64,000 bases of DNA from Leucoraja erinacea (taxonomy: Eukaryota): contig NC_073409.1 in assembly GCF_028641065.1 (NCBI RefSeq), forward strand, positions 20,212,001 through 20,276,000, in the 5' to 3' direction. Positions 29,872-57,272 of this stretch are shown piece after piece. The notes under the pieces were generated by a model. It did not search any database. It was not told where the DNA came from and saw only the letters and a list, made by a program, of their open reading frames with translations. A program made the position numbers and the translations under genes. Numbering within the stretch: position 1 is the first letter of the stretch; every line of letters begins with the position of its first letter.

Positions 29872-31473
29872 ATGAAACATTCAAACTGGCGGAGTGAATT
29901 ACTGGCCATATTTGTTCTTTGTGCCATTATCACCCTGTCATCACCAATAAAGATATTGGTTGTACCTGTCGATGGAAGTCACTGGGTCAATATGAAAATC
30001 CTAGTGGAAGAACTGAACCTTCGTGGACACAAAATTACTGTGGTTCATCCCTCAACATCCTGGTATATCAAAGAAAAGCCTGATCTTTATCAATCCATTG
30101 TGGTCCAAATGGAAGAATGCCTTGGGAAAAACAAAACAGAAGAAATAATACAAGGTTATCTACAAAAGGTACTGACAGCCTTAAGGTATGGGATGACACC
30201 GTGGGCATATATTCAGGTGCAATATCAGATGTGGTATGCCTTGTATTACTATCATCAATGTGCTGGACAGATCATTGTTGCAATATTTAAAAACAAAGTT
30301 GTATTAAATCAAATTGAAGATGCCAACTTTGACTTGGTGCTTACAGATCCTGCTTTTGGTGTAGGTCCAATTCTGGCTTCTTACTTCAAGCTTCCAATGG
30401 TGTACAACGTACGGTGGCTCCCTAACAAGGAAGCCCACTTACTCTCCGCCCCATCACCACTCTCCTACATCCCCATCACCGGTTCACATTTGACGGATAA
30501 AATGACCTTCCTTGAAAGGACATGGAACGTCGTTCTGAATCTAAATCAGATCATTATTTCGGAATTCCTCATTAACCCCATTTACAATGAACTCTGCCAC
30601 CGGTACCTGGGGCCAAATACAGACTTTCAAGGAATTCTTCTGAGCTCTGATGTGTGGCTGATGAGGGTGGATTTTGTGTTTGAATTCCCAAGACCCACCA
30701 TGCCAAACATTGTGTACATCGGAGGCTTCCAGTGTAAACCAGCACGGCCTCTGGCAGCAGAGTTTGAGGAGTTTGTTCAAAGCTCAGGGAAACATGGACT
30801 TGTTGTAATGTCAATGGGAACTATTGTCAGTTTCTTGCCAATGGAGATTACAATAAAAATAGCAGAAGCTTTATCTCAAATCCCCCAGAAGGTTATCTGG
30901 AGATATGATGGTGAGACCCCTCCCAATATAGGGAATAATACACTGCTGGCAAAATGGATCCCTCAGAACGACCTGCTGGGTCACCCCAACACACGAGCCT
31001 TTGTTTCACACGGAGGCACCAATGGGATTTATGAAGCCATCTACCATGGGGTGCCAGTGATCGGCATACCTCTGCTTTTTGACCAGTTTGACAATTTAAT
31101 TAGACTCAAATCCCGAGGAGCAGCAAAAGTGATCAACGTTGCAACCATGCATTCCACAGATCTGTTACAGGCACTCAACGAGGTGATAAACGGCACATCT
31201 TATGGGGACAACATGAAGAGACTCTCCGTTCTCCATCGGGACCAGCCAGAGTCGCCAATGGAGAGAGCCGTTTTCTGGGTTGAGTACGTTGCCCGACACA
31301 AAGGAGCGGGGCATTTGCGCTCAGAATCCCACCGACTCCCCTGGTACGCTTACTATTGTGTAGATGTGATGATCTTTCTGTTGTCTGTGTTACTCCTGCT
31401 CACTGTGCTGGTGGTTGGAACACTGAAGAAACTTTGTCGTATTGCACTGAAGAAAAAGCAAAAAATTCATTAA
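29872..31473 (+). CDS. UDP-glucuronosyltransferase, single-exon CDS (UGT5-like), copy A, 533 aa
   Basis: Signal peptide, DGSHW catalytic His, UGT signature WIPQNDLLGHP..HGG.NG..EAIYHGVP..PLLFDQ, C-terminal TM helix and dilysine tail; polypyrimidine/AG acceptor just upstream (about 29847). Confidence 0.95.
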   Translation: MKHSNWRSELLAIFVLCAIITLSSPIKILVVPVDGSHWVNMKILVEELNLRGHKITVVHPSTSWYIKEKPDLYQSIVVQMEECLGKNKTEEIIQGYLQKVLTALRYGMTPWAYIQVQYQMWYALYYYHQCAGQIIVAIFKNKVVLNQIEDANFDLVLTDPAFGVGPILASYFKLPMVYNVRWLPNKEAHLLSAPSPLSYIPITGSHLTDKMTFLERTWNVVLNLNQIIISEFLINPIYNELCHRYLGPNTDFQGILLSSDVWLMRVDFVFEFPRPTMPNIVYIGGFQCKPARPLAAEFEEFVQSSGKHGLVVMSMGTIVSFLPMEITIKIAEALSQIPQKVIWRYDGETPPNIGNNTLLAKWIPQNDLLGHPNTRAFVSHGGTNGIYEAIYHGVPVIGIPLLFDQFDNLIRLKSRGAAKVINVATMHSTDLLQALNEVINGTSYGDNMKRLSVLHRDQPESPMERAVFWVEYVARHKGAGHLRSESHRLPWYAYYCVDVMIFLLSVLLLLTVLVVGTLKKLCRIALKKKQKIH

Positions 31474-32176
31474 GTTTTCTCCTTTAGAATTGGGAGAATG
31501 TTACATTTTGTAATTTCATTTTTTCAAACAATTTTTAATCATAGTTTCTCCAAGACTCCAAATAACGTTCCTCTCGCAACCCATTCCCTTTACAGCGATT
31601 GAGAATTGTATTAATGCCTATTCAGAAATTATAACAGATATTTGCTGTGTAGTTGCCAACAGCAAACAACTGTACATGAATTAAATGTGACAAAATGGAT
31701 ACGATTTTCAAATATTATTCAAACAAAATCTAGAGAACAGTTCACACGTGTCAAGAAGCTATATTGAGAATTGTTGTTCCGAATTCTCACGATCATATTG
31801 TCTATTGGTAAATATGTACACCACATTGTTTCTCAGTTTTAATATGTTTGATTTCTCCATCATAACTTTCATTGGAGTTGCCTTCCACAGCTTGCCATGC
31901 TGAAATTTTGTCTCTTCATTGAATTTTGGACTGCACTTTTTCACAACTATGACTAGAATTAGCTGTGTCAACAGACTTGCAATATTTTCTTACAAGAAAG
32001 GAACTGTTTTGGCCTATTGAGATTATTGTGTGTAGGTTCACAGTGTAACCCATTCAACAAAGATAAAGGAAAAGTATAGCACAGGAACAGCACCTTCGAC
32101 CCACAATATCTGCGCCAAACACAATGCTAAGATTAACTGATCCCCTCTGCCTACATGTGATCTATATTCCCCCATT

Positions 32177-32810
32177 CATAGAAACATAGAAACATAGAAA
32201 CATAGAAAATAGGTGCAGGAGTAGGCCATTCGGCCCTTCGAGCCTGCACTGCTATTCAATATGAACATGGCTGATCATCCAACTCAGTATCCTGTACCTG
32301 CCTTCTCTCCATGTGATCCCTTTAGCCATAAGGGTCACATCTAACTCCCTCTTAAATATAGCCAATAAACTGGCCTCAACTACCTTCTGTGGCAAAGAAT
32401 TCCAGAGATTCACCACTCTCTGTGTGAAAAATGTTTTCCTCATCTCGGTCCTAAAAGATTTCCCCCTTACCCTTAAACTGTGACCCCTTGTTCTGGACTT
32501 CCCCAACATCGGGAACAATCTTCCTGCATCTAGCCTGTCCAACCCCTTAAGAATCTTGTAAGTTTCTATAAGATCCCCCCTCAATCTTCTAAATTCTAGC
32601 GAGTACAAACCGAGTCTATCCAGTCTTTTTTCATATGAAAGTCCTGACATCCCTGGAATCAGTCTGGCGAATCTTCTCTGTACTCCCTCTATGGCAAGAA
32701 TGTCTTTCCTCAGATTAGGGGACCAAAACTGTACGCAATACTCCAGGTGTGGTCTCACCAAGACCCTATACAACTGCAGTAGAACCTCCCTGCTCCTATA
32801 CTCAAATTCC
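32177..32810 (-). mobile_element. Young CR1 3' fragment; closely similar copies at about 4597-4820(-), 20959-21260(-), 37749-38298(+), 57179 onward(-)
   Basis: RPHLEYCVQFWSPNLRKD..; (CATAGAAA)n tail on the plus strand. Confidence 0.92.
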
Positions 32811-33027
32811 CTGCATGTCCATGTGCCTATCCAAAAGCATCCTAAACTCCAGCATCATATCTGCCTCCATCACCACCCTTAGAAGCGTCTTCCAGGAACA
32901 CACTGTCCACTAAATGTAAAATAATTGCCTTGTACATGTCCCCTAAATTTTGCCCAGTTCACCCTAAAGCTATGCCATCATGATCTTTGACATTTCCACT
33001 TTGGGAAACAGGTTCTCCCTGTCTGTA

Positions 33028-33245
33028 GACACAAAAAGTTGGAGTAACTCTGCGGGTCAGGCAGCATCTCTGGAGAAAAGGAATAGGTGACGTTTTGGGT
33101 CAAGATCCTTCTTCAGACCTGAAGAAGGGTCTCGATCCGAAACGTCAACTATTCCTTTTCTCGAAAGATGCTGCCTGACCCGCTGAGTTACTCCACCTTT
33201 TTGTGGCTATCTTTTGTTTAAACCAGCATCTGCAGTTCCTTCCTA
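33028..33245. mobile_element. Inverted pair of Penelope terminal repeats with hammerhead motifs
   Basis: Arms about 33028-33117 and 33119-33205 are imperfect reverse complements; CTGAAGA at 33119, GAAACGTC at 33139. Confidence 0.75.
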
Positions 33246-36240
33246 CACTTTTTCATATGTGCTATCTGTACCTTCCCATTCTTGCAGTAATTTCCCCTCC
33301 ATCCTATTCTCTCCATGGTCCTATCAACTCGCCCGCAGATTGTTCCATTATCCTGTACATAAGTGGTAGTTTACAGTCCCCAAACGCCATTGGGATTAGC
33401 AAGGGGAAACATAGTCATTGGAAGAATGTGCAAAACCTCACACAGACACTGCAGAAGGTGAGGATTGAGCCCTGGACACAGGGATTGTGAGTCAGAAGTC
33501 CCACTAGCTGTACCTCTGAACTGACTGCAGTGAATGGATTTGAGAGAGTTCAGGAGTGTTTGATTTGTTCTTGAAAGTTGCGTTGTAAGTTGCTTTAGAG
33601 ACTACCATTACGTCGATGAATTTTTGATCATGTCAGCTTATTGTTTAGCTTAGGTTAGAGAGACAGCACAGAAACAGGCCCTTCGGCCGACTGAGTCCAC
33701 GCTGACCAGTGATCCTCGCACATTTACACAATTCTACACACACTGGGGACAATTTTTGTATTTACACCAAGTCAATTAACCTACAAATCTGTACATCTTT
33801 GGAGTGTGGGAGGAAACCGAAGATGTCGGAGAAAACCCGCGCATGTCACGTGGAGAACGTCCTGAACCATCCACATTGAAACTACAGCCAAGAAAGCACC
33901 AATGCCTTTTAGAAGACTAAGGACATTTTTGGCAAGTCTCCAGCAAATCTTACCAACCATTGAAGTTGCACCATTAACCGTGATCACAAAATCAAAACTT
34001 GGTTTGACAATAGCTCTGACCAACTCTGCAAGAAATTGCAGAGAGGTGTGGATATACCCAGTCCCTCACAGAAACCAACCTTCCTCCCATTGATTCCAGT
34101 TACACTTCACGCTGCTTCGGAAATATCTCCAACTCAATCAAGGACCATTTTATCACCAGTCATTCTCTCTTCTCCGGCCTCTTCATCGCATTTTCTCTGT
34201 AACATTTTAACTTAGTTTAATTTAGAGATACAGCATGGAAACAGGATCTTCGGCTTACCGAATTCGTGCCGACCTGCGATTCCCGCGCATTAGCACTATC
34301 CTACACACTCTCGGGACAATTCGCAATTATACCAAGACAATTAACCTACAAAGCTGTACGTCTTTGGAGTGTGGGAGAAAGCCAGAGCTCCCGGACAAGA
34401 CTCACGCAGGTCATGGGGAAAATAACCATATAACCATATAACCAAAATGTCTAAACTATGTACAGACAAGCACCCGTAGTTTGGTCTCTGGTTCTGTAAG
34501 GCTGGAAGTCTACTGCTACACCACCGTACCACCCAATTGTAACTCTAACATTGTAATGCTGTAACACTGTATTCTAGTTTTCTCTTGACACTACCTGTTG
34601 CAGTACTTCATTGGCCTCATGTGTGGTATAGTTTGACTTGACTAATAGAAAGCAATCAAAAGCTTTTCTCTGTACCACTGTATACATGACAATAATAAAC
34701 AATACAATTGTGTTGGTATATTACATTATAAGAAGCATAGCTCGGGTAGCCATTACCTTTTTCTAAGGGTGGAAAGGAAATGTCAAAGACTAGAGCGCAA
34801 GGCTTAAAGGCGAGAGGGACAAAGTTTAAAGGGGATGTGCAGGGCAAGTTTTGTTGCAGAGAATGGTGGGTGGCTGGAACGCACTGCTATGTTGGTGGTG
34901 GAACTAACGAGGTTTTTAAATAATCACATGGATATGCAGAGAATGTGGGAAAGTTGGTGAGCGTGAATAGTTCTTCATAAATGCTTCATACATAAGGGAG
35001 AGGATATTAGTTTATTTTGCCAACATGTTCTGCAAAGACATTGAGGGCTGAAGGGCCTGTTCCTGGACTGTACTGTTCCATGTTTAACTGTGGCCTCCTC
35101 ATTCTAGACTCTCGCATAAGAGGAAACATCCTCTCTGCATCCACCCTGCTAAGATCGCCTTTTCTCCAATTCTTCCTGCAAAGGTGGACTATTGTACACC
35201 TCCCCATATCCTCTTTGACAAAGTAACTAGCATGTTAGATAACAAGGAAGCGAATGGATGTAGCATATTCTATTATCCAAAATTTGGTCTGTGAAGTGCC
35301 CCATAAAAGATTACCGCATTAGATAAGCACCTATGGACTTGAACATAATAGGTTAAATCCAGGGGATCAGATATAGGGCTTTATGTGTGGGCCAGTCATA
35401 TTGTCAGTGCAGAGGGACTAGGAGCAAGGCCAAGTGTGCATCCAGAGTCAAGGTCTGGAATAGTGTGCAGTCAAAGCTGGGACAATGGGAGTGTTCAGCA
35501 TTGGGAACATAAGCAGGTAAGCAGCTATGATCAGGGTAGAATTGGGGGCCAGGTGTAAGGCTGGACTCAGGGTCAGGAATGAGAGAAGGTATGCAACTGG
35601 AGTCAGGGTCAGGAGTAGTACCAGGTGTGCAGTGAGACCCAGGTTGGTCAACATGGGTCAAGTGCTTGATTATAATCTGATTTCCATACATGAATATACT
35701 AAGATCATTCATGTGCTGCACCTGTTGATCAGAGCCTAGCTCTACCGTGGAATGTAATTAGGAACATAATTTAGCTTAACCTTATTCATAGCTAATCCAA
35801 TTTAAAGCATAAATATTGCATTCAAGTGGGAGTTAAAAGACTTGCTGCAGTATGTACCAGGTTGCACAATTTCAAGCTGAAAACTGCAAAAGCTTCGTAC
35901 CAATGACACCCATTGTATAAACTTTCAGAGTGCAGTTAATTAAGTGCTGCACACTGGGGTTACAGAACACCAACGTAAATCCCAGGAGCTTTAGTATTTC
36001 TTAAAGTACAAGGTGATTATAAAAATATAAGAGATTCAGGAATACATATTGCAGAAGTAAATCTGGCATCCTTGCCTCGTCTGGGTTAGGGTTGACCTTA
36101 GACCAATCTGCTACAATGTGGTTGATTTTTGACTGCCCTCTCTACTCCTTTGTGTTAAACCACTCTGCAATGTTGGATATCTCCAACACGTAGAGTTCAA
36201 GAGATCACAAAGGTTTCTCACCATCATATTATGGGTGGAT

Positions 36241-36304
36241 TCCATCCATTCCATCCATCCATCCATCCATCCATCCATCCATCCATCCATCCATCCATCC
36301 ATCC
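36241..36304. repeat. (TCCA)n microsatellite
   Basis: Direct inspection. Confidence 0.95.
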
Positions 36305-36829
36305 TTGTTATCTTCTGGTTTGCATGTTTTTTCTATTTGCGCAAAAACATCTTCCCATTCCTCTGTGCTGCATGTGCAGCAATTTTTGTTTCGATCGACT
36401 ATAACGACTATACTGAACATCTCCTACATTGAGCAGAGCAGTTAATTATCAATAACTTTCTAATAATATTAAACTGTTTCCATAGAGAAAATTAACTCCA
36501 GCAAATGGACACAAAATGCTGGAGTAAATCAGCGGGACAGGCACCATCTCTGCCAAGAAGGAATGGATGATGTTTTGGTTCGAGACCTTTCTTCAAGGTG
36601 GTCTGAAGAAGGATCTTGACCTGAAACATCGCTCATTCCTTCTCTCGAGCGATGCTGCCTGTTCTGCTGAGTTACTCCAGCTTTTTTTATGTCTATCGTC
36701 GGTGTAAACCAGCATCTGCAGTTCCCTCCTACACATTCACCCCTGTAAGTCTGTGACCAATATCTACCATCAAATTCCTGAGGTGTCAACTCAGTGGCGC
36801 CTTTGCAAGAAACACACAGATGTAGGGGG

Positions 36830-37008
36830 AGGGCAGTGGGCGGAGTTATTTGAAAGTTCATCCATGCAACAATATTTTCGGGTATTTCTCGGAATCTCGA
36901 GCTATAAACTGTTTGCGACTAAAAGCAGCGATGACTCAGAGGAAACAAGCCAACTAGACTCATCGTCAGGGGCAACAGAAAGCGAGCACGGATGTGAATA
37001 AAACAGTG
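36830..37008 (+). promoter_or_regulatory. Candidate promoter and non-coding first exon of UGT copy B
   Basis: GC box GGGCGGAG about 36838, TATAAA about 36903, donor G|gtaagg at 37008; non-repetitive CpG-containing patch 3.2 kb upstream of the coding exon. Confidence 0.45.
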
Positions 37009-37446
37009 GTAAGGATATTAATATTACGCAACTGTATTTTGGATCAGCCAGTTGAAAGGTGCCAAAGAATATTTCTTTGCGGTGAAATCAACGACCAGGA
37101 AGTTAAAAACCTTCTCTCAGATCAGTAAGTACCAGATATTTGTTGCAGAAGACAAAATGTCATGTCGACTACCTTATATTATTAAAGAAATGGTTTAGCT
37201 TCGGGAACTTTATTGAGAATTTAGGAGAACTGCTGAAGTGAAAAATGCTAGACATTGTTGTGTGCAGAATTGGGAGTTAGATCAGCATCTGAGACTGAGG
37301 TGTTGTCCCGCTGGAGGCAATATTAAACAATTCTAAATTCGGAAGGAAGGTCCCCACCAAAATGTTACCTATCTCTGCCCTCCACAGATGCTGCCTAACT
37401 TGCTGGATCACTCCAGTACTTGGTGTTCTATGTAAGCAGTTGCTTG

Positions 37447-37700
37447 AAGGGCCTTCCTCACTTGGCAATTTTTTCGGCGACTTGCCGGCGTCATTGACGT
37501 ATCAAGGTCGCCGAAAGATTTTGAACATTTCAAAATCCAGCAGAGACAAAAACAATGTTGCAACACTTGAGGAAACACCGTGCGTCAATACGCCATCAGG
37601 CCGCGTCACTGCAGCAACACGGCGTAACTTTTTCGGTGACCTGATACGTCACTCCATAATGCCGGGAGTCACCGAAAAAATCGCCGTGGGACAGGCCCTT
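37447..37700. mobile_element. MITE with terminal inverted repeats (PIF/Harbinger-like)
   Basis: AAGGGCCT..CACTTGGCAATTTTTTCGGCGACT at left mirrors AGTCACCGAAAAAATCGCCGTGGGACAGGCCCTT at right; superfamily is inferred. Confidence 0.65.
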
Positions 37701-37748
37701 TAGTCTCCACAATTCTTCGATTTTTTGCATTAGATTAGCACACAACTT

Positions 37749-38298
37749 GCGTTTTGGTCTCCAAATCTGAGGAAGGACATTCTTGCCATAGAGGGAGTGC
37801 AGAGAAGGTTCACCAGACTGATTCCTGGGATGTCAGGACTGTCTTATGAAGAAAGACTGGATAGACTTGGTTTATACTCTCTAGAATTTAGGAGACTGAG
37901 AGGGGATCTTATAGAAACTTACAAAATTCTTAAGGGGTTGGACAGGCTAGATGCAGGAAGATTGCTCCCGATGTTGGGGAAGTCCAGGACAAGGGGTCAC
38001 AGCTTAAGGATAAGGGGGAAATCCTTTAAAACTGAGATGAGAAGAACTTTTTTCACACAGAGAGTGGTGAATCTCTGGAACTCTCTGCCACAGAGGGTAG
38101 TCGAGGCCAGTTCATTGGCTATATTTAAGAGGGAGTTAGATGTGGCCCTTGTGGCTAAGGGGATCAGAGGGTATGGAGAGAAGGCAGGTACGGGACTGAG
38201 TTGGATGATCAGCCATGATCATATTGAATGGCGGTGCAGGCTCGAAGGGCCGAATGGCCTACTCCTGCACCTAATCTCTATGTTTCTATGTTTCTATG
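37749..38298 (+). mobile_element. Young CR1 3' fragment
   Basis: Open ORF2 C-terminus nearly identical to the full-length element; (TTTCTATG)n tail. Confidence 0.92.
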
Positions 38299-38744
38299 AT
38301 TCTAACCTCACTGTCCTGCGGTTGTGAAGTCTCAGTTTACTGCAGCATTCCTTCATACACTGCCCTGTGTATTGCAAAGCTTTGTTCCTTAAACTGAAGC
38401 TGCATTTCCCTATTCCTGCTCAAACTTGTCACTCTTTGAACACCGGCCAAAAGCATGAACTAGAAACATTATCTGCTGAGTGGAAAAGCCTATTCCCGCT
38501 TCCAATTCATATTTGCATGTCATCCAAATTCAGCTCTGAGAATCTACCTAAAGCACACATTAGATTTAGTTTAGTTTAGAGATACAGAGCAGAAACAGGC
38601 CCTTCAGCCTGCCGAGTCCGCGCCGACCAGCAATCCCCGCACACTTACATTGTCCTACACTAGGGGCAATTTACAATTTTTACTGAAGCCTATTAACCTA
38701 CAAACCCGTATGTCTTTGGAATGTGGAAGGAAACCGGAGCACCC

Positions 38745-39697
38745 GATGATTTAGATGAAGGGATTCAAAATTACATTAGCAAATTTGCAGGTGAGTCAAA
38801 GCTGAGTCGCAGTGTTAACTGTGAGGAGGATGCTATGAGAATGCAGGGTGAGTGCAGATGAATGGCAGATGCAGTTTAATGCAGATAAATGTGAGGTTAT
38901 CTTTGGTAGCAAAAACAGGAAGGCAGATTATTATCTAAATGGTGTCAAGTTGGCAAAAGTACAGCGGGATCTGGGGGTCCTTGTTCGTCAGTCAATGAAA
39001 GTAAGCATGCAGGTACAGCAGGCAGTGAAGAAAACGAATGGCATGTTGGGCTTCATAACAAGAGGAGTTGAGTATAGGAGCAAAGAGGTCCTTCTGCAGT
39101 TGTGTAGGGCCCTAAAGACACCACACCTGGAGTATTGTGTGGATTTTTGTTCCCCTAATTTGAGGAAGGACATTCTTGCTATTGAGGTAGTGCAGCGTAG
39201 GTTCACAAGGTTAATCCCGGGATGGCGGGACTGTCATACGCTGAAAGAATGGAGAGGCTGGGCTTGTATACTCTGGAGTTTTGAAGGATGAGAGGGTATC
39301 TTATTGAAACGTATAAGATTATTAAGGGATTGGACACACGAGAGGCAGGAGACATGTTTCCGGTTGGGGGAGTCCAGAACCAGGGGCCACAGTTTAAGAA
39401 TAAGTGGTAAGGCATTTAGAATGGAGATGAGGAAACATTTTTTCACACAGAGAGTTAAGAGTCTGTGGGATTCTCTGCCTCAGAGGGCAGAGGGGGCCAA
39501 TTCTCTGGATACTTTCAAGAAAGAGCTTGATAGGGCTCTTAAGGATAGTGGAGTCCGGGGATATGGGGAGAAGGCAGGAATGGGGTACAGATTGTGGATG
39601 ATCAGCCATAATCACATTGAATGATGGCGCTGGCTTGAACGGTCAAATGGCCTACTCCTGCACCTATTGTCTATCGTCCATTGTCTATTGACTATTG
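38745..39697 (+). mobile_element. CR1 3' fragment; related piece at about 43036-43601(-)
   Basis: WQMQFNADKCEV..; (CTATTGT)n tail. Confidence 0.9.
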
Positions 39698-40191
39698 TCA
39701 CCCAGAGAAAATCCACACAGGTCACATGGAGAACATATCAACAGCACCCGCATTAAGGATTGAGCCCAGGTCTCTGGCACTGTAAGGCAGCAACTACTGC
39801 TGTGCCACCGTGCTGCCCCTATTCATATTTGCATGACGTCCATATGGGAATATGAATGCACCTAAGGCACGGGCATCCGGAGCAGGCCGTTGAGGCGGGG
39901 ACTATCACAATGTTGAAGAAATAATTGGACAGGTACATGGACAGGACAGGTTTAGAGGGATATGGACCAAACACAGGCAGGTGGGACTGGTGTAGTTGGT
40001 TGGTGTGGGTAAATTGGGCCAAAGGTCCTGTTTCCACTCTGTATGACTCTATGACACACATTTGATTTGGTTAATGTAATGTCAAGAAAGCGCCCAACTG
40101 TTTCTAAATGTTGTGTTTTGCCAATGTGTGTTGCTTACTAACGTGTCTGATCAATTCTGCAACAGGATCGGTGCTATTTTCTATTTCCAGC

Positions 40192-41790
40192 ATGGGTAAT
40201 CCTGGATGGAAAGGCAGATTTGCATTTGTTCTTTGCATCACCATCACCTTGTCTTGTCCAATTACTCGAGCAGCTAGAATATTGGTCGTGCCTGTTGATG
40301 GGAGTCACTGGATCAATATGAAATGTTTGATAGAAGAGCTGAACCTTCGTGGCCACAGCATCACTGTGCTCAGTCAGTCAACGTCCTTGTATATCAAAGA
40401 GAGCCCCGACTTGTATCAATCCATTATGATTCAAATGCCAAGAGAATATGAAAATTACAACGTGATGGAAAATATTGTACAAAAAACATTAGAAAACTTA
40501 CAGGAAGGCTCGACAGTCTGGGGAAAAATTAATCTCCAATATGAAATGTTGATGTTTTTGTTTGAGTATCATCAATGGGCGAAAGAGATTATCAAAGCAT
40601 TATTCGAAAACAATAGCTTGTTGAACCAACTTGGAAATGCAAATTTTGAGTTAATACTTACAGATCCGGTATTTGGTATGGGGTCAATGCTTGCTTATTA
40701 TTTAAAACTGCCGCTGGTGTACAACGTTCGATGGCAAGTTGGTGGGGAAGGTCATTTACTCACTGCCCCCTCACCACCTTCCTACATCCCACGCACTGGC
40801 TCACATTTGACAGACAAGATGAATATTCTCCAAAGATCACAAAATGTCCTGCAAACTCTTAATGAGTTCCTGATAATAGAGCTTTTGGTCTATCCACGTT
40901 ATAATGAAATCTGCCAACAGTATCTGGGACCAGACACAGACTTCAAGTCGATTCTCCTCAGAGCTGATGTGTGGCTGATGAGGGTGGATTTTGTGTTTGA
41001 ATTCCCAAGACCCACCATGCCAAACATTGTGTACATCGGAGGCTTCCAGTGTAAACCAGCACGGCCTCTGGCAGCAGAGTTTGAGGAGTTTGTCCAAAGC
41101 TCAGGGAAACATGGACTTGTTGTAATGTCAATGGGAACTGTGGTCAATTCCTTGCCAATGGAGATTACAATGAAAATAGCAGAAGCTTTTGCTCAAATCC
41201 CCCAGAAGGTTATCTGGAGATATGATGGTGAGACACCTCCCAATATAGGGAATAATACACTGCTGGCAAAATGGATCCCTCAGAACGACCTGCTGGGTCA
41301 CCCCAACACACGAGTCTTTGTTTCACACGGAGGCACCAATGGGATTTATGAAGCCATCTACCATGGGGTGCCAGTGATCGGCATGCCTCTGCTTTTTGAC
41401 CAGTTTGACAATTTAGTCAGACTCGAATCCCGAGGAGCAGCAAAAGTGATCAACATTGCAACCATGCACTCTACAGATCTGTTGCAGGCACTCAATGAGG
41501 TGATAAACGGCGCATCTTATGGGGACAACATGAAGAGACTCTCCGCTCTCCATCGGGACCAGCCAGAGTCGCCAATGGAGAGAGCCATTTTCTGGGTTGA
41601 GTACGTTGCCCGACACAAAGGAGCGGGGCATTTGCGCTCAGAATCCCACCGACTCCCCTGGTACGTTTACTATTGTGTAGATGTGATGATCTTTCTGTTG
41701 TCTTTGTTACTCCTGCTCACTGTGTTGGTGGTTGGAACACTGAAGAAACTTTGTCGTAGTGTTTGTGGGAAAAAGCAAAAGACTGAGTGA
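40192..41790 (+). CDS. UDP-glucuronosyltransferase, single-exon CDS (UGT5-like), copy B, 532 aa
   Basis: Same motifs as copy A; start MGNPGW at 40192 is homologous to copy C start; AG acceptors at 40165 and 40190; AATAAA at 41833. Confidence 0.95.
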   Translation: MGNPGWKGRFAFVLCITITLSCPITRAARILVVPVDGSHWINMKCLIEELNLRGHSITVLSQSTSLYIKESPDLYQSIMIQMPREYENYNVMENIVQKTLENLQEGSTVWGKINLQYEMLMFLFEYHQWAKEIIKALFENNSLLNQLGNANFELILTDPVFGMGSMLAYYLKLPLVYNVRWQVGGEGHLLTAPSPPSYIPRTGSHLTDKMNILQRSQNVLQTLNEFLIIELLVYPRYNEICQQYLGPDTDFKSILLRADVWLMRVDFVFEFPRPTMPNIVYIGGFQCKPARPLAAEFEEFVQSSGKHGLVVMSMGTVVNSLPMEITMKIAEAFAQIPQKVIWRYDGETPPNIGNNTLLAKWIPQNDLLGHPNTRVFVSHGGTNGIYEAIYHGVPVIGMPLLFDQFDNLVRLESRGAAKVINIATMHSTDLLQALNEVINGASYGDNMKRLSALHRDQPESPMERAIFWVEYVARHKGAGHLRSESHRLPWYVYYCVDVMIFLLSLLLLLTVLVVGTLKKLCRSVCGKKQKTE

Positions 41791-41924
41791 GATTTTTTTC
41801 CCTTGGTATATTTTGTTTTTTCAAATGAATCAAATAAAGTTTTTGATGCAGAGTCTCCTTTCCATAAAGCATGAATTCAACAAATGCTAATAAAAGCCAT
41901 AAAGGTGAGTGAAATAACAACCTT

Positions 41925-43030: not shown

Positions 43031-43601
43031 TTAAACAATAGACAATAGACAATAGGTGCAGGAGTAGGCCATTCGGCCCTTCGAGCCAGAACCGCCATTC
43101 AATGTAATCATGGCTGATCATCCCCAATCAGTACCCCCCGTTCCTGCCTTGTCCCCATATCCCCTGACTCTGCAATTTTTAAGAGCCCTATCTAGCTCTC
43201 TCTTGAAAGCATCCAGAGAACCTGCCTCCACTGCCCTCTGAGGCAGAGAATTCCACAGACTCACCATTCTCTGTGAGAAAAAGTGTTTCCTCATCTCCGT
43301 TCTAAATGGCTTACTTCGTATTCTTAGACTGTGGCCCCTGGTTCTGGACTCCACAACATCGGGAACATGTTTCCTGCCTCTAGCGTGTCCAAACCAATCC
43401 TGAACAATCTTATATGTTTCAATGAGATACCCTCACATCCTTCTAAACTTCAGAGTGTACAAGCCCAGCTGCTCCATTCTCTCAGCATACGACAGTCCCG
43501 CCATCCCGGGAATTAACCTCGTAAATCTACGCTGCACTCCCTCAATAGCAAGAATGTCCTTCCTCAAATTAGGGGACCAAAACTGCACACAATACTCCAG
43601 G

Positions 43602-46484
43602 CGTGTCTGCAGTCACATGGTGGAAAGAATAAATGGAACATTGAAGGTTAATATAAATAATATTTGTGTAATTACAAAGTTGAATTGGATCGATGCCCTG
43701 CCATTGGCACTGAAGAGATGTTGCATGCAAAATAACCGAATAACCCACATAACACCACATGAGATGTTTACTGGCCGACCTATGTAGGTGGCACAATGGA
43801 GAGGTCTCGACAAGGGACCGAGTTTGGAACAGTTAGAGGTAGAATTTAAGAAGTATATGCAAACAGTTAATTATGATATACAAGTCTATTTATGCACAGG
43901 CAAAGTAAATGCTGTTGGAGGTGGACCAGGAGGAAGGACCCTTTAAACCTGGAGACAAGGTGTATTTATGAACTTTCCGAACCACCCACTGATGATCAGG
44001 TAGAAGGTTGATCTACCTGGTGCCATTTCAATCCTTACATGAGGGCTGTCCCGCAGGAATGAATAGATAATAGCCCTGAGGTAAGTGAACAGGAGGACAA
44101 AGAAGTGAGAGAAGAGTAGAGTTTTAACAAGAACGTTGTTTGACGTCAGTGGTGGGCAAATTAATGGAATGGATATTTAAAGATAATATATATATAAGAA
44201 TCTGGAAAAATTGGGTCGGATTAGGAAGAATTAGCATGGATTTGTGACTGGAAGGTCATGTTTGACAAATCTTGAATTTTTTGAAGAGGTTATTAGGGAA
44301 ATTGATGAGGGTAAAGTGGTAGATGTTGTCTAGATGGACTTCAGTAAGGCCTTTGACAAGGTTCCACACTTAGGAGTAGCCAGATGGATTAAACAGTGGC
44401 TGTATGGGAGATGCCAGAGAGTAAGGTGGATGGCTGTTTGTCAGGTTGGAGGTCAGTGACTAATGGTGTGGTAAATTGGATTAAAAGTGTAAATGTAGAT
44501 GATACTAAGATAGTTGGTGTTGTAAATAATGAAGTAGATTTTCAAAGTCTACAGAGAGATTTAGGTCGTTTGGAAGACTGGGCTGAAAGATGGCAGATGG
44601 AGTTTAATGCTGATAAGTGTGAGGTGATACATCTTGGAAGGACAAATCAAAATAGGACGTACATGGTAAATGGTTGTGAATTGAGGAGTGAAGTTGAACA
44701 GAGGGATCTAGGAATAACTGTGCATAGTTCCGTGAAGGTGGAATCTCATGTAGATAGGGTGGTAAAGAAAGCTTTTGGTGTGTTGGCCTTTATTAATCAG
44801 AGCATTGTGTATAGAAGTTGGGATGTAATGTTAAAATTGTACAAGGCATTGGTGAGGCCAATTCTGGAGTATGGTGTACAATTGTGGTCGACAAATTATA
44901 GGAAAGATGTCAACAAAATAGAGAGAGTACAGAGGAGATTAACTAGAATTTTGCCTGGGTTTCAGCAACTAAGATACAGAGAAAGGTTGAATAAGTTAGG
45001 TCTTTATTCTTTGGAGCACAGAAGGTTAAGGGGGGACTTGATAGAGGTCTTTAAAATGATGAGAGGGATAGACAGAGTTGACATAGATAAGCTTTTTCAA
45101 TTGAGAGTAGGGAAGATTTAAAGAGGACATGATTTGAGAATTAAGGGACAGAAGTTTAGGGGTAACATGAGGGGGAACTTCTTTACTCAGAGAGTGGCAG
45201 CTGTGTGGAATGAGCTTCCAGTGGAAGTGGTGGAGGTAGGTTAGATTTTATAATTTAAAAATAAATTGGAAAGGTATATGGACTGGAAAGGAATGGAGGG
45301 TTATGGTCTGAGTGTAGGTAGATGGGACTAGGTGAGAGTACGTGTTCGGCAAGGACTAGAAGGGCCGATGTGGCCTGTTTCATTGCTGTCATTGTTATAT
45401 GATTAAGATAATGTGAGTTTTTTGGAGACAATAGTGACTATGAGATTGGTGTAAATAAGGTGAGAATAAGGGGTGTATGTGTCTTGTTTGGGGAACAATG
45501 TTTCACCTTCATACGTAATAATACTAGCCCGGAGGGGTCTTTCACTAAAGCCATGGATAAGTTAGTGAGGTTAAAAGAAACATAGAGTTAAGACATCAAT
45601 TGTGTGGGTGGCTGGAGAGCATGTTGGGGGGTTTGGGGAGAATGGCTGATTCAAATTGGTCTGACCATTGGGATCGTACTACTTTCAGTGGCAATAATGT
45701 TGTGCTGTGTTTTCCCCTGTATTAAGCCCCCCCTGGTGAAAGCTACTGTGAAACAACTGCCAATGATAACGGGTGCAGACGAATCCAGCCCTAAAGGAAA
45801 GTGGATCTCGGTGATAGAGTACTACTACGATTAAGAAGAACTGTTAGGAAAATGTTAAATGAAGCCTGTAAGGGAAGCTGGATCTTTTTTCCTGCCTCAC
45901 GTAATGGGGGTGGGTTTTTGGCCCAGTTTCTCAAGGAGCCAGAGAAAGAAGACTACACAGCATTACGTAAATTTAATTAAACGAGCCTGCATTTTAGGGC
46001 TATATGAGTGATTTGACCTGGGGGATGTGTGTGTAGTTTTCTTTGTCTTTTGAGGCTTTTTAGTCTCAGAGGAGGAAGTTATATAGAAGTTATATAGAAG
46101 AAACAAGTTACTTCTAACTTTTACCAATATGTTTAAAACATTATTTTTATGTGATCAGACATCGGCACACAATCAAGTTGCTTCTTAGTTTTATTTTGCT
46201 TTAGCTAGAACATCATGGTAGGCTCAGAGTTTAAAGTTAAAGGGCAAGGACAGTGAGAGACTAAAGTTAATGAAGCATGCATGCCAAGTAGCCAAAGATA
46301 AGACTGTAATAAAAAGCTGTCTGAATTTATGAATCGGAGAACAATCAGAGAGCGACCAGGCCGTGTTGCCTCTGAATGTTCCAAGCCAAAATTTGTGTGC
46401 AAATAAAGGCTTTTTGTCTTGAAGAATTCTCCGTGTCTGTGGCCTTTTATCCAAACTTTGAGTCTTAAAACCACGACATTAACA
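43602..46484 (+). mobile_element. Endogenous retrovirus remnant (integrase, env TM, PPT, 3' LTR), interrupted by CR1
   Basis: IN: MVERINGTLK..WIDALPLAL..TPHEMFTGRPM, PFKPGDKVY; env: GVCVLFGEQCFTFIRNNTSPEGSFTKA plus TM helix; purine tract AGAGGAGGAAG about 46068; LTR about 46078-46484 with AATAAA, ending TTAACA. Confidence 0.8.
44190..45402 (+). mobile_element. CR1 fragment inserted within the ERV remnant
   Basis: RT and C-terminal ORF 44396-45121. Confidence 0.9.
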
Positions 46485-46826
46485 GAGTCAACATTTATAA
46501 ACATTTTATTCTTTAACAAGAATTAACAGAATTATGAATGAACAGAATTATGAATCTAACCCTATATCACACACACAAACTATTCCCCCGCAACGCTGAT
46601 TACACTGCGAGTCGGGTTACTGAAATGGACGAACAAAAGGCCCCGCTCCGTTGCGTACTACACGTCAGCCCATTGCATTTCGCACGAGTGGCCTATCTTG
46701 CTCCACTACAGGATCTTTGCTTTCACCTGCCTTCTCCCCACATCCCCAGACATCAGCAATAATCAAGAATATGCCATTCTCTACCTTAAAAATATCCATT
46801 CAGATTAGAGAAATCAATATTAATAT

Positions 46827-47137
46827 AGGGCGGCACGGTGGCACAGCGGTAGAGTTGCTGCCCTACAGCGCCAGACTTGGGTTTGATACTGACTACGGGT
46901 GCTGTCTGTGTGGAGTTTGTACGCTCTTCCTGTGACCGCATGGGATTTCTCCAGGTGCTCCGGTTTCCTCCTACATTCCAAAATGTCCAGGGTCGGAAGC
47001 TAATTGGCTTGGGTGAAAATTGTCAGTTGTCCTTTGTGTGTAGGATAGTGTTAACGTGGACGCTGGTTAACGCTGGTTGCGCGAACTCAATGGACCGAAG
47101 GACCTGTTTCCGCACGGTACCTCTAAACTAAACTAAA
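46827..47137 (+). mobile_element. tRNA-derived V-SINE (HE1-like); other copies about 7455-7757(-), 23660-23957(-), 33645-33850(-), 34210-34535(-), 38565-38745(-), 39705-39818(-), 48820-49138(+), 49420-49705(+), 50965-51165(-), 55450-55575(-)
   Basis: GGGCGGCACGGTGGC..A/B-box head, core GGAGTTTGTACGTTCTCCCCGTG..GGTTTCCTCCCAC, (AAACT)n tail. Confidence 0.8.
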
Positions 47138-47203
47138 GTTTGGGTTTGTAAACTGCCCAATGTTTGTCTTGTCTGCAAACTTACTAATCAACCCACCAAA
47201 TCA

Positions 47204-48840
47204 TTTATAAACTCAAATCATTTATATATCCAAATCATTTATATATTCACACGCAGTAAAGGTCCCAGCACTGGTCCTTGTGGAACAACACTGGTCACAG
47301 TGCCCCGGTCAAAACAAAAACTCATCTGCCACTACTCTACTCTCTACTGCCAAGCAACTTTTGAATGTAAAGCCCATACAATCTCTGGATTGTTATAAAA
47401 TCCATCTGGTTCATTGGTATTTGCATTAAGGGAATGTAAAACTCGCTTGATCAGTTTGTATTCCTGGAAGTCTAGGGTAACAGAGTCAGGAGGTTGAACG
47501 TTGTGTTGACTCCGAGGCAATAAGTAAACTTAACTTGTCCTTGTCAACAAAATATTGCCAACCAAACATGCAGCTCGGAATGAAAAATAATCGCATCAAA
47601 GCGAACATTACACAACCAAAGCTCTTATTGGACTTTGTCCCCTTCAACTGTAAAGCGTTGATCACTTTCCCGTGATTGAAATCTCAGCGACATTGGAAAG
47701 GAAACTTCCATCGCGATTGTATTTACCAAATGAACTTTCATACTTGCGGTTAGTTTTAGATAGGGTTTGGGGGCGGGTAAATTGGGTGTTGTATTTGTCC
47801 GTAAGCATTTACCTGTGTTACTCGCGGACAAGTGAACAAGGTGTGAGGGGGCCGGCGTTTTTTATTTCTTGTGTGGATTGGAAGCGGTCGCAGAGTCCCA
47901 GGCTCCAGAGAAGGAGATTGTTTCACTGGTAATTCAGATACCTAAGGTATGTAAATTGAAAACACTTCCAAATTCCCCACAATCTCTGTGTTGTAACAAT
48001 GCATGCTTTCTAGTTACAGTTTCGGCAACGAATAGCAATATTTAATTTTCATTTTATCTTGAACAAACTTGCCGAGAGCTTATTTTTTTTCATACTCGAT
48101 ATTATCTCAACACATATATATTGTATTCTCCATACACACACATTTCTACTCCTAAGATTTCACTCAATAGTCAATATTCCATTCCTGGCCCATTTGACTG
48201 TGTTTTTACTTTTACGCTTTAAACTGAAGCCCATGTTTTGTCTGAAGAAGTGCCTCGAGCTGTTCATTTTGTCCAGAGATGTTGCCTGGCCCGCTGAGAT
48301 ACTCCAGCTTTTTGTGTCTATCCCATCCCATGTTATGTTGTGGGATTCACATACACATTTAGGTTTGTTGCAGTGTTCGCCTGATCTTTGATCAAAAATG
48401 CGAGCTGTTTTAACGATCCCGATAAGGGTAATGCTGTTGTAAACGAACTTAATCGCTAAACCATTTCATCCTACAGTCCAGGCGCCAGCTCTCACACCTA
48501 CGCATTGTTTCCTTGATATCCGTCCTCTTTGATGCCTCCTTTTTCACAGCTTACCCTTCCATCATTACTTTTTTGCATATCGCTAATTCATTAGTTCTAT
48601 ATCGCTCTATATACCGTCTCCTATCTCCCAGTCTAAAGAAGGGTCTCGACACAAAACGTCACCCATTCCTTCTCTCCAGAGATGCTGCCTGTCCCGCTGA
48701 GTTACTCCAGTATTTTGTGCTTGTCTTCATCCTAAAATGCACAAACAGGACTGCCCTGGCAGACCCAATGTTTCTGCCTGCTCCAGCCCCACAGATCTCA
48801 TCTCCAAATTCCTCAATTCAGGGGCGGCACAGTGGCGCAG
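47204..48840 (+). repeat. Segmental duplication unit, copy 1 (paralogue at 61493-63740)
   Basis: Colinear high similarity over about 1.6 kb of mostly non-TE sequence, seen directly. Confidence 0.9.
47560..47946 (+). promoter_or_regulatory. Candidate promoter and non-coding first exon of UGT copy C
   Basis: ATTGG overlapping HNF4-like TGGACTTTG (about 47626), GC box GGGGCGGG (about 47770), strong donor AAG|gtatgt at 47946; duplicated at 62.4-62.8 kb. Confidence 0.5.
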
Positions 48841-49959
48841 CGGTGGAGTTGCTGCCTTACCAGGATCTATCCTGACTATGGGTGCTGTCTGTACGGATTG
48901 TACGTTCTCCCCGTGACCTGCTTGGGTTTCCTCCGGCTGCTCCGGTTTCCTCCTACCCTCCAAAGACGCTCAGGTTTGGAGGTCAATAGGCCTGGTCCCT
49001 AATTCTAAATGGTCCCCAAATGCGTGAGGGATAGTTTCAGTGTGCGGGGATCGCTGGTCGGCATGGACTTGATGGGCCGAAGGAGACCCATGCTGACCCA
49101 TTTCCGTGCTGTATCTCTGAACTAAACTAAATTAAACTACCTTGTCCCCCCTTGTCCAGTTCCTTCGGACTTACATCTGAGACACATCACAAGCTCTTCA
49201 ACACTTCAATAACTTTCAATTCCTATGTCCCCATCGCCTCAGCATGGATGATCAGTATATTCCATCGTTCCCCACTAGGAGGGGCTCAGGGTCATTAAAA
49301 TCTTCCTTGAACAGAAACTAAATCGGTTCTCCTCTACACTCTCCTCCCCCTTCCGAAATCTGTCCTCACCCTCAACAACCTTTCTGTTGACTCCTCTTTC
49401 TTTCTTCAAGTCTTATATTTGGCACGGTGGCACAGTGAGGTAGCGGTAGAGTTACTGCCTGGCAGCGACAGAGACCCGGGTTCAATCCTGACCACGGGTG
49501 CTGTTTGTACGTTCTCCCTGTGACCTGGGTTGGTTTTCTCCGCATGCTCTGGTTTCCTCCCACACGTGCAGGTTTGTAGGTTCATTGGCTTCTGCAAAGT
49601 GTGAATTGACCAGAGTGTGGAGGAGAGCGCGAGTGTACGGCGTGATCACTGGTCGGCGTGGCCTCGGTGGACTGATGGGCCTGTTTCCACGCTGCCTCTC
49701 TCAACATTAAAGTCTATTGGCACTCGCATGGATTACAGCTGTGCCTGTTATGTCAAACAACCCTTGAACCAGGCTTACACTGGCATCATCCCCAACTCTT
49801 TCGTCACATTGACAACAGCATCGGAGCTGCATCCTCCACCAATGCTGAACTCTAGATGCTACCTGTCCCACTGTCCAGCATTTTGTGTCCATCTTTGGTG
49901 TACTTCAGCACTTTAATTTTAGAGTTTTTAATTCTGCTTACTTTCAGTGACTGATGGAC

Positions 49960-50740
49960 AAGGACTCCCAGATCTCATTGTACTTCCCCTTTTCCTAACT
50001 TGATACCATTCAATAATCTGCCTTCCTGTTCTTGCCACCAAAGTGAATAATCTCACATTTATCCACATTAAATTGCATCTGCCCACTCCCCAACCTGTCC
50101 AAGTCACCCTGCATCCTCATAGCATCTTCCTCACAGTTCACACTGGCACCCAGCTTTGTGTCATCTGCAAATTTGCTAATGCCACTTTTAATCCCTTCAT
50201 CTAAATCATTACTGTATATTGTACAGGATACTGAGTTGGATGATCAGCCATGATCATATTGAATGGCGGTCGGTGCTGGCTCGAAGGACCGAATGGCCTA
50301 CTCCTGCACCTAATTTCTATGTTTCTATGTAAATAGCTGCGGCCCAGCACTGAGCCTTGTGATACCCCACTAGTCACTGCCTGCCATTCTGAAAGGAAAT
50401 TGTTTATCCCTACTCTTTATTTCCTGTATGCCAACTAATTTTCTATCCTTGTCAGTACTTTACTGCCAATACCAAGTGCTCCAATTTTGCCCAATAATCT
50501 CAAATGCGGTACCTTATCAACAACTTTCTGAAAGTCCAGGTACACAACATCCACTGGCTCTCCCTTGTCCATTTTCCTTGTTACATCCCCAAAAATTCCA
50601 GAAGATTAGACAACAATGATTTCCCCTTTGTAAATTCCATGCTGACTTGGACCGATTCTGTTACTGCAATAATGTGCCACTATTTTTTGTTTAATGTAAT
50701 TGATTCCAGCATCTTACCCATCACCGATGTCAGGCTAAAT
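49960..50740 (-). mobile_element. Decayed CR1 RT fragment with a short oppositely oriented CR1 3' end nested at about 50222-50329
   Basis: KFADDTKLG on the minus strand; actgtatattgt..aaatagctgc split by the insert. Confidence 0.75.
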
Positions 50741-51500
50741 GACGTCAAGAAAGATAATGCCATTTAGAGGGAAAGATAGACCAGTCATGATTGAATGGCA
50801 GAGTGGACTTGATGGGCCAAATGGCCTAATTCTTCTCCTGGAAATTATGTACATATTTATTTCCTTCAAAATACACTGAACTCTCATTGAAAAATGAAAT
50901 GTGGCCTTAAGCTTTTGGAGAAATATTGCACAACAATTAAAATCCTTTTACTCCCCCCTATTGCAAATTAGTTTAGTTTTGTTTAGAGGTACAGCATGGA
51001 AACAGGCCCTTTGGCCCACCAAGTCCACGCCGACCATCAATCACTCATTTATGCTAGTTCTGTATGATCTCAATTTCCCATCCACTCTTTCTACACTTGA
51101 GGCAATATATACAGAGGCCAATTAACATACAAACCTGCATGTCTTTGGGATGTGGGAGGAAACCGGTGGCGGACTAACTCAGCGGTCGGGCAGCATCCAT
51201 GGTGAACGTGAACAGGTCATGTTTCGGATGCCAACATGTCATGGGCCAATGGAAGGAGAATGGGTTTGAGAGGGAAAGATTGATCAGCCATGCTTGAATG
51301 GCAGAGTAGATTTGATGGGCCGAATGGCCTAATTCTGCCCTGAGAATTTATGAACATGTAATCTATCCCTGACGTGATGAGTTACCTCCCTGAGGTACTC
51401 CAGCACTTTGTGTTTTTATTCTCCTTTTGCCAATGTTTGTCACTTACCAACATTTCTAGTCAATTCTTCAACAGGATCAGTGTGATCATCTTTCCTCAAC

Positions 51501-53115
51501 ATGGGTGGTCTTGGATGGAAAAGCAGATCAAATGTCACATTTGTTCTCGGTATCATCTTCGCCCTGTCTTGTCCAATTACCCAAGCAGCTAGAATATTGG
51601 TCGTGCCTGTTGATGGAAGTCACTGGATCAACATGAAAATTCTAATGGAAGAGCTGATCCCTCGCGGCCACAACATCACTGTGCTTTGTTTCTCCACAGC
51701 CTGGTTCATCAAAGAGAGACCCGATCTGTATCAAACCATCATAGTTCAAGCACAAGATAATTTTGTAGCTCCTGTAAGGAAAGAAATGATGGAGAAATTT
51801 GTGCTAATGTCACTGGACAGGTTACAGAATGGTCACTCACTATGGGGCAACATAATGTTACAAAATGTAATGGTTACGATTATGTACAATTTCCATAGTC
51901 TTTATCAAAATTTCAACATGGCGATCTTTGAAAACAAAACCTTGTTGAATCAACTTGAAAATGCAAACCTTTGACCTAATACTCACAGATCCTATATTTG
52001 CTACTGGGCCAATGCTTGCATATTATTTAAAAGTGCCGCTGGTGTACAACATACGATGGCAGATCAATGGGGAAGCCCATTTTCTCACTGCCCCGTCACC
52101 ACTTTCCTACGTCCCACTTCCTGGCTCACTTCTCACAGACAAAATGGATTTTCTCCAAAGAACAGAAAATGTCATTCACAGTGTAATTCAACACTTGATT
52201 TCTGAATTTATGATGTATCCACTTTATAATGAATTCTGCCATCGGTATCTGGGACCAGACACGGACATCAAGTCGATTCTCCTCAGAGCTGATGTGTGGC
52301 TGATGAGGGTGGATTTTGTGTTTGAATTCCCAAGACCCACCATGCCAAACATTGTGTACATCGGAGGCTTCCAGTGTAAACCAGCACGGCCTCTGGCAGC
52401 AGAGTTTGAGGAGTTTGCCCAAAGCTCAGGGAAACATGGACTTGTTGTAATGTCATTGGGTTCCATTGTCGACTCTTTACCAATGGAGATTACAATGAAA
52501 ATAGTAGAAGCTTTATCTCAAATCCCCCAGAAGGTTATCTGGAGATATGATGGTGAGACCCCTCCCAATATAGGGAATAATACACTGCTGGCAAAATGGA
52601 TCCCTCAGAACGACCTGCTGGGTCACCCCAACACACGGGCCTTTGTTTCACACGGAGGCACCAATGGGATTTATGAAGCCATCTACCATGGGGTGCCAGT
52701 GATCGGCATGCCTCTGCTTTTTGACCAGTTTGACAATCTACTAAAGCTTGAATCCCGAGGAGCAGCAAAAGTGATCAACATTGCAACCATGCACTCCACA
52801 GATCTGTTGCAGACACTCAACGAGGTGATAAACGGCGCATCTTATGGGGACAACATGAAGAGACTCTCCGCTCTCCATCGGGACCAGCCAGAGTCGCCAA
52901 TGGAGAGAGCCGTTTTCTGGGTTGAGTACGTTGCCCGACACAAAGGGGCAGGGCATTTGCGCTCAGAATCCCACCAACTCCCCTGGTACGCTTACTATTG
53001 TGTAGATGTGATGATCTTTCTGATGTCTGTGTTACTCCTGCTCACTGTGTTGGTGGTTGGAACACTGAAGAAACTTTGTCTTATTGCACTGAAGAAAAAG
53101 CAAAAAATTCATTAA
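51501..53115 (+). pseudogene. UGT5-like copy C with a single +1 frameshift (pseudogene or assembly error); 537 aa if corrected
   Basis: ORFs 51501-51974 and 51955-53115 join if one C is removed at 51968-51969 (AAC C TTT GAC versus AAC TTT GAC in copy A); all other motifs intact. Confidence 0.85.
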
Positions 53116-57178: not shown

Positions 57179-57272
57179 AAACATAGAAACATAGAAATTA
57201 GGTGCAGGAGTAGGCCATTCGGCCCTTCGAGCCTGCACCGCCATTCAATATGATCATGGCTGATCATCCAAC

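Follow-up and report, generated by a model that had tools for sequence, protein, structure and literature searches.

Ancient 5′ halves and lineage-homogenised 3′ halves in an intronless UGT array of Leucoraja erinacea: a probable case of repeated gene conversion

How can neighbouring genes, each encoding a complete enzyme in a single coding exon, differ strongly in their 5′ halves and hardly at all in their 3′ halves? The question is raised by three UDP-glucuronosyltransferase (UGT) genes in a stretch of 64,000 nucleotides of the Leucoraja erinacea genome (contig NC_073409.1, positions 20,212,001 to 20,276,000; hereafter the window, to whose numbering all coordinates without a contig name refer). 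Gene A (29872-31473, plus strand, 533 aa), gene B (40192-41790, plus strand, 532 aa from the conserved Met) and gene C (51501-53115, plus strand) had been singled out in a preliminary description, made from the sequence alone, as three single-exon UGTs that join variable N-terminal halves to homogenised C-terminal halves. All three match PF00201 and have a single coding exon, but gene C is frameshifted. Our preferred answer, to which we assign a probability of about 0.88, is that repeated conversion between paralogous loci, accompanied by some crossover, keeps overwriting the 3′ halves within each shark and ray lineage, and that the 5′ halves are ancient and divergent.

An array of complete genes

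The window genes form the left end of a tandem UGT array of about 285 kb (C33:20.243-20.528 Mb). The shared half, used as a query against the same genome, had 30 matches; 16 of them are near-full copies at 95-100% identity in the array (4/16 inverted), accompanied by partial copies, so that the three genes first described are only 3 of the 16. Intact single-exon open reading frames (ORFs) number 14, each of 532-537 aa from the conserved Met, and fall into four N-half types: A (n = 1), B (n = 2), C (n = 9) and D (n = 2). Broken copies are gene C itself (locus L014), L016, L017, L019, L028 and L029. Each array gene has its own in-frame 3′ half, so shared constant exons of the UGT1A/UGT2A kind are not present.

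Silent sites separate the two halves

We compared gene pairs in windows of 100 alignment columns. DNA identity was 0.46-0.86 from the ATG to the DVWL(M) motif, reached 1.00 in the first window past it and remained at 0.87-0.99 to the end of the transmembrane (TM) helix. DVWL starts at 30649 in gene A, 40966 in gene B and 52291 in gene C, within two bases of the positions given earlier. Past the stop codon, the flanks of A and B are unrelated (identity 0.32-0.41). In gene A, synonymous divergence (dS) and the breakpoint delimit a variable 5′ half (29872-30648, plus strand), which encodes the signal peptide and the acceptor-binding domain, and a homogenised tract from DVWL to the end of the TM helix (30649-31441, plus strand; supported by dS and windowed identity). 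The corresponding tracts of gene B (40900-41758, plus strand) and gene C (52225-53083, plus strand) have approximate starts, in gene B at alignment codons 234-248 in comparison with C- and D-type genes. The near-identity from DVWLM to the TM helix, claimed to include synonymous sites, therefore stands in substance; the shared coding half is, more exactly, 95-98% identical among array genes and interrupted by two variable islands. Between genes of different N-type, identical runs extend up to 248 nt.

The contrast is sharpest at silent sites. Between A and B, 91/148 synonymous differences in the 5′ half stand against 8/184 in the 3′ half (Fisher p 4e-32), or dS of 1.29 versus 0.048, about 27-fold apart, which bears out both the strong divergence of the N-halves and the difference in dS that conversion had been expected to leave. 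Gene C was omitted from all codon-based counts because of its frameshift. Against the 13 other intact array genes, gene A gave dS of 1.21-1.69 in the 5′ half and 0.042-0.117 in the 3′ half.

Could purifying selection alone hold the donor-binding half similar? The C-half protein is indeed more conserved even between unconverted paralogues (proportion of nonsynonymous differences 0.16 vs 0.32). Synonymous sites, however, are homogenised within the array yet diverge freely from two intronless paralogues on another contig, C17 (dS 1.37-2.4 in the 5′ half, with one pair saturated, and 1.17-1.42 in the 3′ half); gene A and the C17 gene L018 differ at 99/153 and 112/183 synonymous sites, respectively (p 0.57). 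Since both halves are near saturation in this comparison, 3′ silent sites are free to change. In addition, the C-half of A is closer to its own paralogues (94-95%) than to its stingray orthologues (81-84%). Selection alone, which predicts similar dS in both halves, can thus be set aside as having a negligible chance of being right.

The C17 cluster itself (C17:20718600-20739900; L018, L020 and L025), a second intronless UGT cluster of three genes, was considered as a negative control and rejected. Its pair L018/L020 shows similar differences in both halves (24/151 vs 24/181, p 0.53), but the third gene, L025, is 3′-homogenised with L018 (p 2e-6; proportion of synonymous differences, pS, 0.24 in the 5′ and 0.054 in the 3′ half) and with L020 (p 0.02), and the cluster therefore serves only as an outgroup. 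A further intronless pair (C20:4649000-4658900, L026), 42-43% identical to gene A, is uninformative because of its youth: its members are about 97% identical to each other at silent sites, in the 5′ and the 3′ half alike (synonymous differences 5/164 vs 6/180).

The array is rich in near-identical repeats and includes six broken copies, one with a one-base frameshift in gene C, features that an assembly or polishing collapse could produce. Such a collapse would not leave tract copies that differ by 2.0-4.6% and carry private sites, nor the same discordance between N- and C-halves in the proteins of other genomes; moreover, in a contig from the 2015 run X1 (depth 6.5), 51 nt of A-type 5′ sequence continue into 185 nt of the shared tract with the alleles of A. 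We regard an artefact of this kind as next to impossible.

The tract begins inside the N-domain

Maximum-likelihood breakpoints for pairs that include gene A fell at alignment codon 263-264 (A residue ~259) in 13/13 cases, with 2dlnL of 237-277, in agreement with a start at DVWLM. Among B-, C- and D-type genes, by contrast, they fell at alignment codons 234-248 (residues 230-244), 15-29 codons before DVWL. Breakpoints thus differ between pairs, and the D pair has a sharp boundary despite a 5′ dS of only 0.29. In alignments, the crystallised C-domains of human UGT2B begin at about residue 288, which places the start of the tract some 30-60 codons inside the N-domain. The proposal of domain-restricted conversion or unequal crossover is accordingly supported as to recombination, while the restriction to a domain is only approximate.

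Two spliced UGT loci of the same genome, whose type labels are taken from their exon patterns, provide a reference for this boundary. The exon1/exon2 junction of a UGT2-type cluster on C3 maps to residue ~247, and the first exon of a UGT1-type locus on C7 ends near residue 296; the tract thus starts nearer to the UGT2-type cut than to that of UGT1A. The analogy with UGT1A drawn earlier holds for a variable N-part and a constant C-part obtained without shared exons; for the position of the boundary, UGT2 is the closer model. The C3 cluster (C3:16955500-17005200, minus strand; L021-L024) has about 14 first-exon matches, several of them broken, upstream of five constant exons, and two exon types appear to alternate in it; the C7 locus (C7:44000700-44082100, minus strand; L027) is multi-exonic with long first exons.

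The proximity of the B/C/D breakpoint (residues 230-244) to that junction, and the presence of such a cluster on C3, would be expected if a variable/constant UGT locus had given rise to the array by retrocopying of its various spliced mRNAs, the common 3′ half being the old constant exons. Exons on C3 and C7 are, however, only 25-60% identical in protein, and none of the 30 own-genome matches is a split, multi-exon source near 95%; it is for want of such a source that retrocopying from a spliced cluster fails. The copies are also tandem rather than dispersed, breakpoints vary between pairs, and N-halves about 300 million years (My) old are combined with lineage-specific C-halves. This origin seems to us extremely improbable.

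N-halves group by orthologue and C-halves by lineage

If conversion recurs, 3′ halves should group by lineage and 5′ halves by orthologue. We took 120 listed homologues, the best of 7990 scored candidates, and combined 62 of these database proteins in one alignment with 10 of the 16 intact own-genome proteins that had entered the dS comparison. Removing two rows identical to own proteins (labelled Leucoraja erinacea), seven bony-fish rows and one short isoform left 62 rows. Trees were built from proteins only, with 213 columns for the N-half and 258 for the C-half. Among the matches listed, the closest database protein, from Amblyraja radiata, is 97% identical.

The expected discordance was found. 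The N-half tree contains an A-type clade of seven proteins from three sharks, two skates and two myliobatiform rays (support 100/97) with the shape of the species tree, and a D-type clade of eight proteins from skates, sawfish and myliobatiforms (100/99). In the C-half tree, proteins instead form clades by lineage: skates (12 rows, 100/99), myliobatiforms (12 rows, 100/90), orectolobiform sharks (12 rows, 97/90), sawfish (6 rows, 90/90) and Narcine (2 rows, 100/100). Approximately unbiased (AU) tests on 31 rows rejected the A-type clade (p 7e-58) and the D-type clade (p 1e-5) in the C-half and the skate clade in the N-half (p 4e-33). Gene A is 58/94% identical (N/C) to its paralogue B and 68/84% to its Hypanus orthologue, and within-species pairs of catshark, zebra shark, sawfish and stingray reach 47-56% in the N-half and 89-97% in the C-half. 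Across the 258 C-half columns, 20 separate the skate from the myliobatiform paralogue sets and one tracks N-type. Since the A-type clade spans sharks and rays, which split 306 Ma (PMC3692497), the A-type N-half, the oldest of the four, is at least 306 My old, and homogenisation took place separately in several lineages.

A consequence for annotation is that only the N-halves are usable for orthology, which trees of the full-length proteins and automatic names ('2C1-like', '2A1-like') get wrong here. Among the database proteins, isoforms in a Chiloscyllium cluster (P0045) are spliced internally, close to where the coding exon begins at its 5′ end, and so lack the signal peptide and the region of the catalytic His.

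Conversion, crossover and their templates

The tract shared by A and B is internal, with diverged flanks on both sides, and it is common to genes on both strands, which together indicate conversion. Two types of 3′ tail and flank, named IH and TE, are moreover shuffled with respect to the N-types: C-type N-halves occur with both, and the 3′ flank of L002 (B-type) matches that of the C-type gene L012 over 434 nt at 95.6% but that of the B-type gene L003 over only 146 nt at 83.6%. Gene A has an IH-type flank (31474-31954, plus strand) with ~82% identity to the flank of gene C over ~480 nt, which cannot be aligned to that of gene B; gene C has the IH tail and gene B the TE tail. Because of this shuffling and of recombinant tails in L005 and L007, crossovers or long tracts are indicated as well. 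The same facts would suit a history of unequal crossover and duplication without conversion, in which chimeric genes spread one C-half. Such a history would need two crossovers to place the A-B tract between diverged flanks, and unequal crossover between direct repeats leaves a tract common to both strands (4/16 inverted) unexplained. We consider it quite unlikely.

A 3′ bias could also arise if conversion were templated by reverse-transcribed mRNA through the machinery of long interspersed nuclear elements (LINEs), and a long LINE that carries two large ORFs is present in the window, together with numerous young 3′ fragments. Yet homogenisation is weaker in the 3′ flanks, which are of distinct types, than in the coding tract, and TE-type genes share flank over 434-919 nt, well beyond the AATAAA at +44/+110 (putative poly(A) signal positions). 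An mRNA template is therefore very improbable.

Under conversion between gene copies, GC content at third codon positions (GC3) may be expected to carry a trace. GC3 is higher in the 3′ than in the 5′ half in 14/14 array genes (p<0.05 in 9/14) and lower in 2/2 C17 genes. Synonymous differences to L018 favour GC within the tract (36-40 vs 18-20), not in the 5′ half (14-19 vs 12-15). Although unpolarised, this pattern is compatible with GC-biased conversion.

Several points weigh against this interpretation or soften it. The between-contig C17 control is itself near saturation (pS 0.6-0.7). GC3 values are non-independent, as the genes have a common tract; the GC excess has no polarity, and 5/14 genes are non-significant. 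Within the C-half, a PHI-like mosaic test on all 36 informative sites was non-significant (p 0.32), and it reached p 0.028 only after post hoc removal of 11 CpG-type sites. In the C-half tree, six catshark sequences form an unresolved grade with no supported clade, and gene A still pairs with its Amblyraja orthologue (97/87; N 96%, C 97%), which shows overwriting to be slow. The groups for the AU tests were chosen once the trees were known, these tests relied on quick LG+G4 trees, and the cross-species comparison consists of proteins only, drawn from 90%-identity cluster representatives. Finally, conversion and double crossover cannot be told apart here.

Selection or passive recombination

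Given N-half types older than the shark-ray split, C-halves grouped by lineage and a tract internal to the A-B comparison, a self-sustaining cycle can be proposed. The conserved protein of the sugar-donor half would keep DNA identity sufficient for ectopic recombination, which would in turn renew that identity. Tracts that enter the acceptor-binding half would be purged by selection or blocked by divergence, setting the boundary at residue ~230-259. Each gene would then encode a predicted glucuronosyltransferase, anchored in the endoplasmic reticulum, in which an individual acceptor range is combined with a donor-binding and membrane module common to all, and the array would act like a spliced variable/constant cluster without shared exons.

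Whether the architecture serves a purpose is a separate matter from the mechanism. It may be maintained for its function. In that case, sharks and rays would have had for about 300 My a 'virtual constant exon', a variable/constant design made by conversion and cut near the UGT2 splice boundary, for which the genome relies on splicing elsewhere, on other chromosomes, with selection guarding the acceptor-binding halves and residues such as F321; to us the odds on this are about even. Somewhat less probable, though still a serious contender, is passive recombination, in which the architecture is unselected: the conserved protein keeps the 3′ half competent for recombination, and the 5′ halves have diverged past the exchange threshold. 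The boundary coincides with the rise in conservation around DVWL and not with the edge of the domain. Among young C-type genes, divergence is low in the two halves alike (dS 0.04-0.18 in the 5′, 0.02-0.12 in the 3′ half), the array holds broken copies, and the C17 pair L018/L025 is likewise 3′-homogenised (37/154 vs 9/166). Less easily reconciled with it are the sharp boundary of the D pair at its low 5′ dS and two features within the tract. F321 is kept by 4/4 batoid A-type proteins, whereas the 28 others have S (27) or Y (1), and variable islands occupy the same columns in 4-5 of 5 lineages. The retention of F321 in A-types and the recurrence of the islands suggest selection against some conversions, and residues that survive in an overwritten tract would be candidate specificity determinants in the donor-binding domain.

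In gene A, the first island, SMGTIVSFL (30811-30837, plus strand), covers residues ~315-321 of what may be a loop, and the second surrounds DQFDN (31075-31113, plus strand; residues ~402-414). The idea that the islands face the acceptor was dropped as unsupported: the C1 loop is described as contacting the donor sugar (PMC7419078).

Comparison with known systems

Two precedents show comparable patterns. The protocadherin clusters of fugu likewise consist of large exons in tandem that diverge in their 5′ regions and are homogenised in their 3′ regions by regional conversion specific to each lineage; GC3 is raised in their converted part (PMC1852091), which the GC3 pattern of the array may parallel. 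They differ in that variable exons are spliced to true constant exons and that identity exceeds 99% (PMC1852091); in the skate array, the converted tract itself stands in for constant exons, within an enzyme gene that is complete in one coding exon, and is 95-98% identical across all N-types. Mammalian TLR1 and TLR6 also group by orthologue in the N-part and by species, through independent conversion, in a C-terminal region of ~300 aa that includes the TM segment (PMC2077338). There, two receptor genes are concerned (PMC2077338); here, 14 intact enzyme genes of four N-types, one predating the shark-ray split.

The spliced UGT1A/UGT2A clusters, like the array, combine an N-part that varies and binds the acceptor with a common part for donor binding and membrane anchoring (PMC1885805). 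No exons are shared in the array, where every gene has its own, non-identical copy of the common part. For vertebrate Ugt1 and Ugt2 clusters, the available part of PMC1885805 reports no prevalent gene conversion, with one exception in dog. The array would thus be an exception to the published view of vertebrate UGT clusters, which is one of birth-and-death with little conversion, and splicing and recombination would be two routes to the same modular detoxification enzyme in one genome. Our literature search, which left most subscription journals outside its reach, found no paper on this array or on conversion of UGT C-halves. The array is a well-supported case of a process already described, in TLR1/TLR6 and fugu protocadherins, and new for UGTs as far as the literature was searched.

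Teleost and amphibian UGT5 genes resemble the array in having the whole ORF in one exon, tandem clusters, pseudogenes and a probable 5′ non-coding exon (PMC2819257). The accessible text of that paper, in which sharks are not mentioned, reports UGT5 only from teleosts and amphibians and does not describe conversion for Ugt5. Identity is ~52-56% for the bony-fish matches and ~30% for own-genome UGT1/2-type first exons, which fits UGT5; judged by its single coding exon, the array likely belongs to this family, and UGT5-like genes would then likely extend to cartilaginous fishes. No named UGT5 protein was present among the 120 + 120 homologues listed or the cluster members listed, an NCBIfam search returned only sub-threshold bacterial families, and our literature search found no paper joining UGT5 with chondrichthyans.

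Gene models, transcripts and other loci

The three window genes score 545, 539 and 468 bits with PF00201 (full-length UDPGT domain; curated cut-off 19.5); five human UGT2B C-domain structures are matched with E-values of 6e-65 to 1e-61. UGT motifs are in place (SHW at 36, DPAFG at 159, HGGTNG at 380 and DQFDN at 404), as are the TM helix and the basic tail; the catalytic His and Asp are probably equivalent to H39 and D151 of UGT1A1 (PMC1885805).

An acceptor-like CAG lies 22-26 nt upstream of the ATG in 16/16 loci inspected, which makes it likely that a non-coding exon precedes the coding one, like that of zebrafish Ugt5 (PMC2819257). In gene A, the candidate splice acceptor AG is at 29845-29846 (plus strand), 25 nt before the ATG, and would receive an upstream non-coding exon. 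Gene B has an extra in-frame ATG at 40108, upstream of its candidate acceptor at 40164-40165. The read data screened contained no spliced read or upstream exon. Single-cell run X24 gave five reads, none within the coding 5′ half, and polyA run X22 of a related species gave 23 reads that lie mostly on the shared half and are not gene-specific.

One surplus base near 51968 shifts gene C to the +1 frame and splits it into ORFs of 157 and 384 aa; the NCBI model is a 'LOW QUALITY PROTEIN' read-through. The lone contig that spans the frameshift (run X2, depth 155, four other differences) is without the surplus base and probably merges paralogues. The frameshift may mark either a pseudogene or an assembly error.

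Elsewhere in the genome, a degraded UGT copy lies on a small contig (C1486:70300-71500). Within the window, the long LINE (57177-61205, minus strand), presumably CR1/L2-like, has ORFs of 315 and 934 aa of the endonuclease/reverse transcriptase type, and young 3′ fragments of it at 92-97% identity lie near 4596, 20946, 32189 and 37751. A GC- and CpG-rich segment at 21830-22230, 7.6 kb upstream of gene A, contains about ten CCAAT-box-like (ATTGG) motifs and is promoter-like. Another GC-rich segment (6140-7000), probably a repeat element, holds a (GCT)n run and two ORFs that overlap, and a short GACTCTT tandem closes it.

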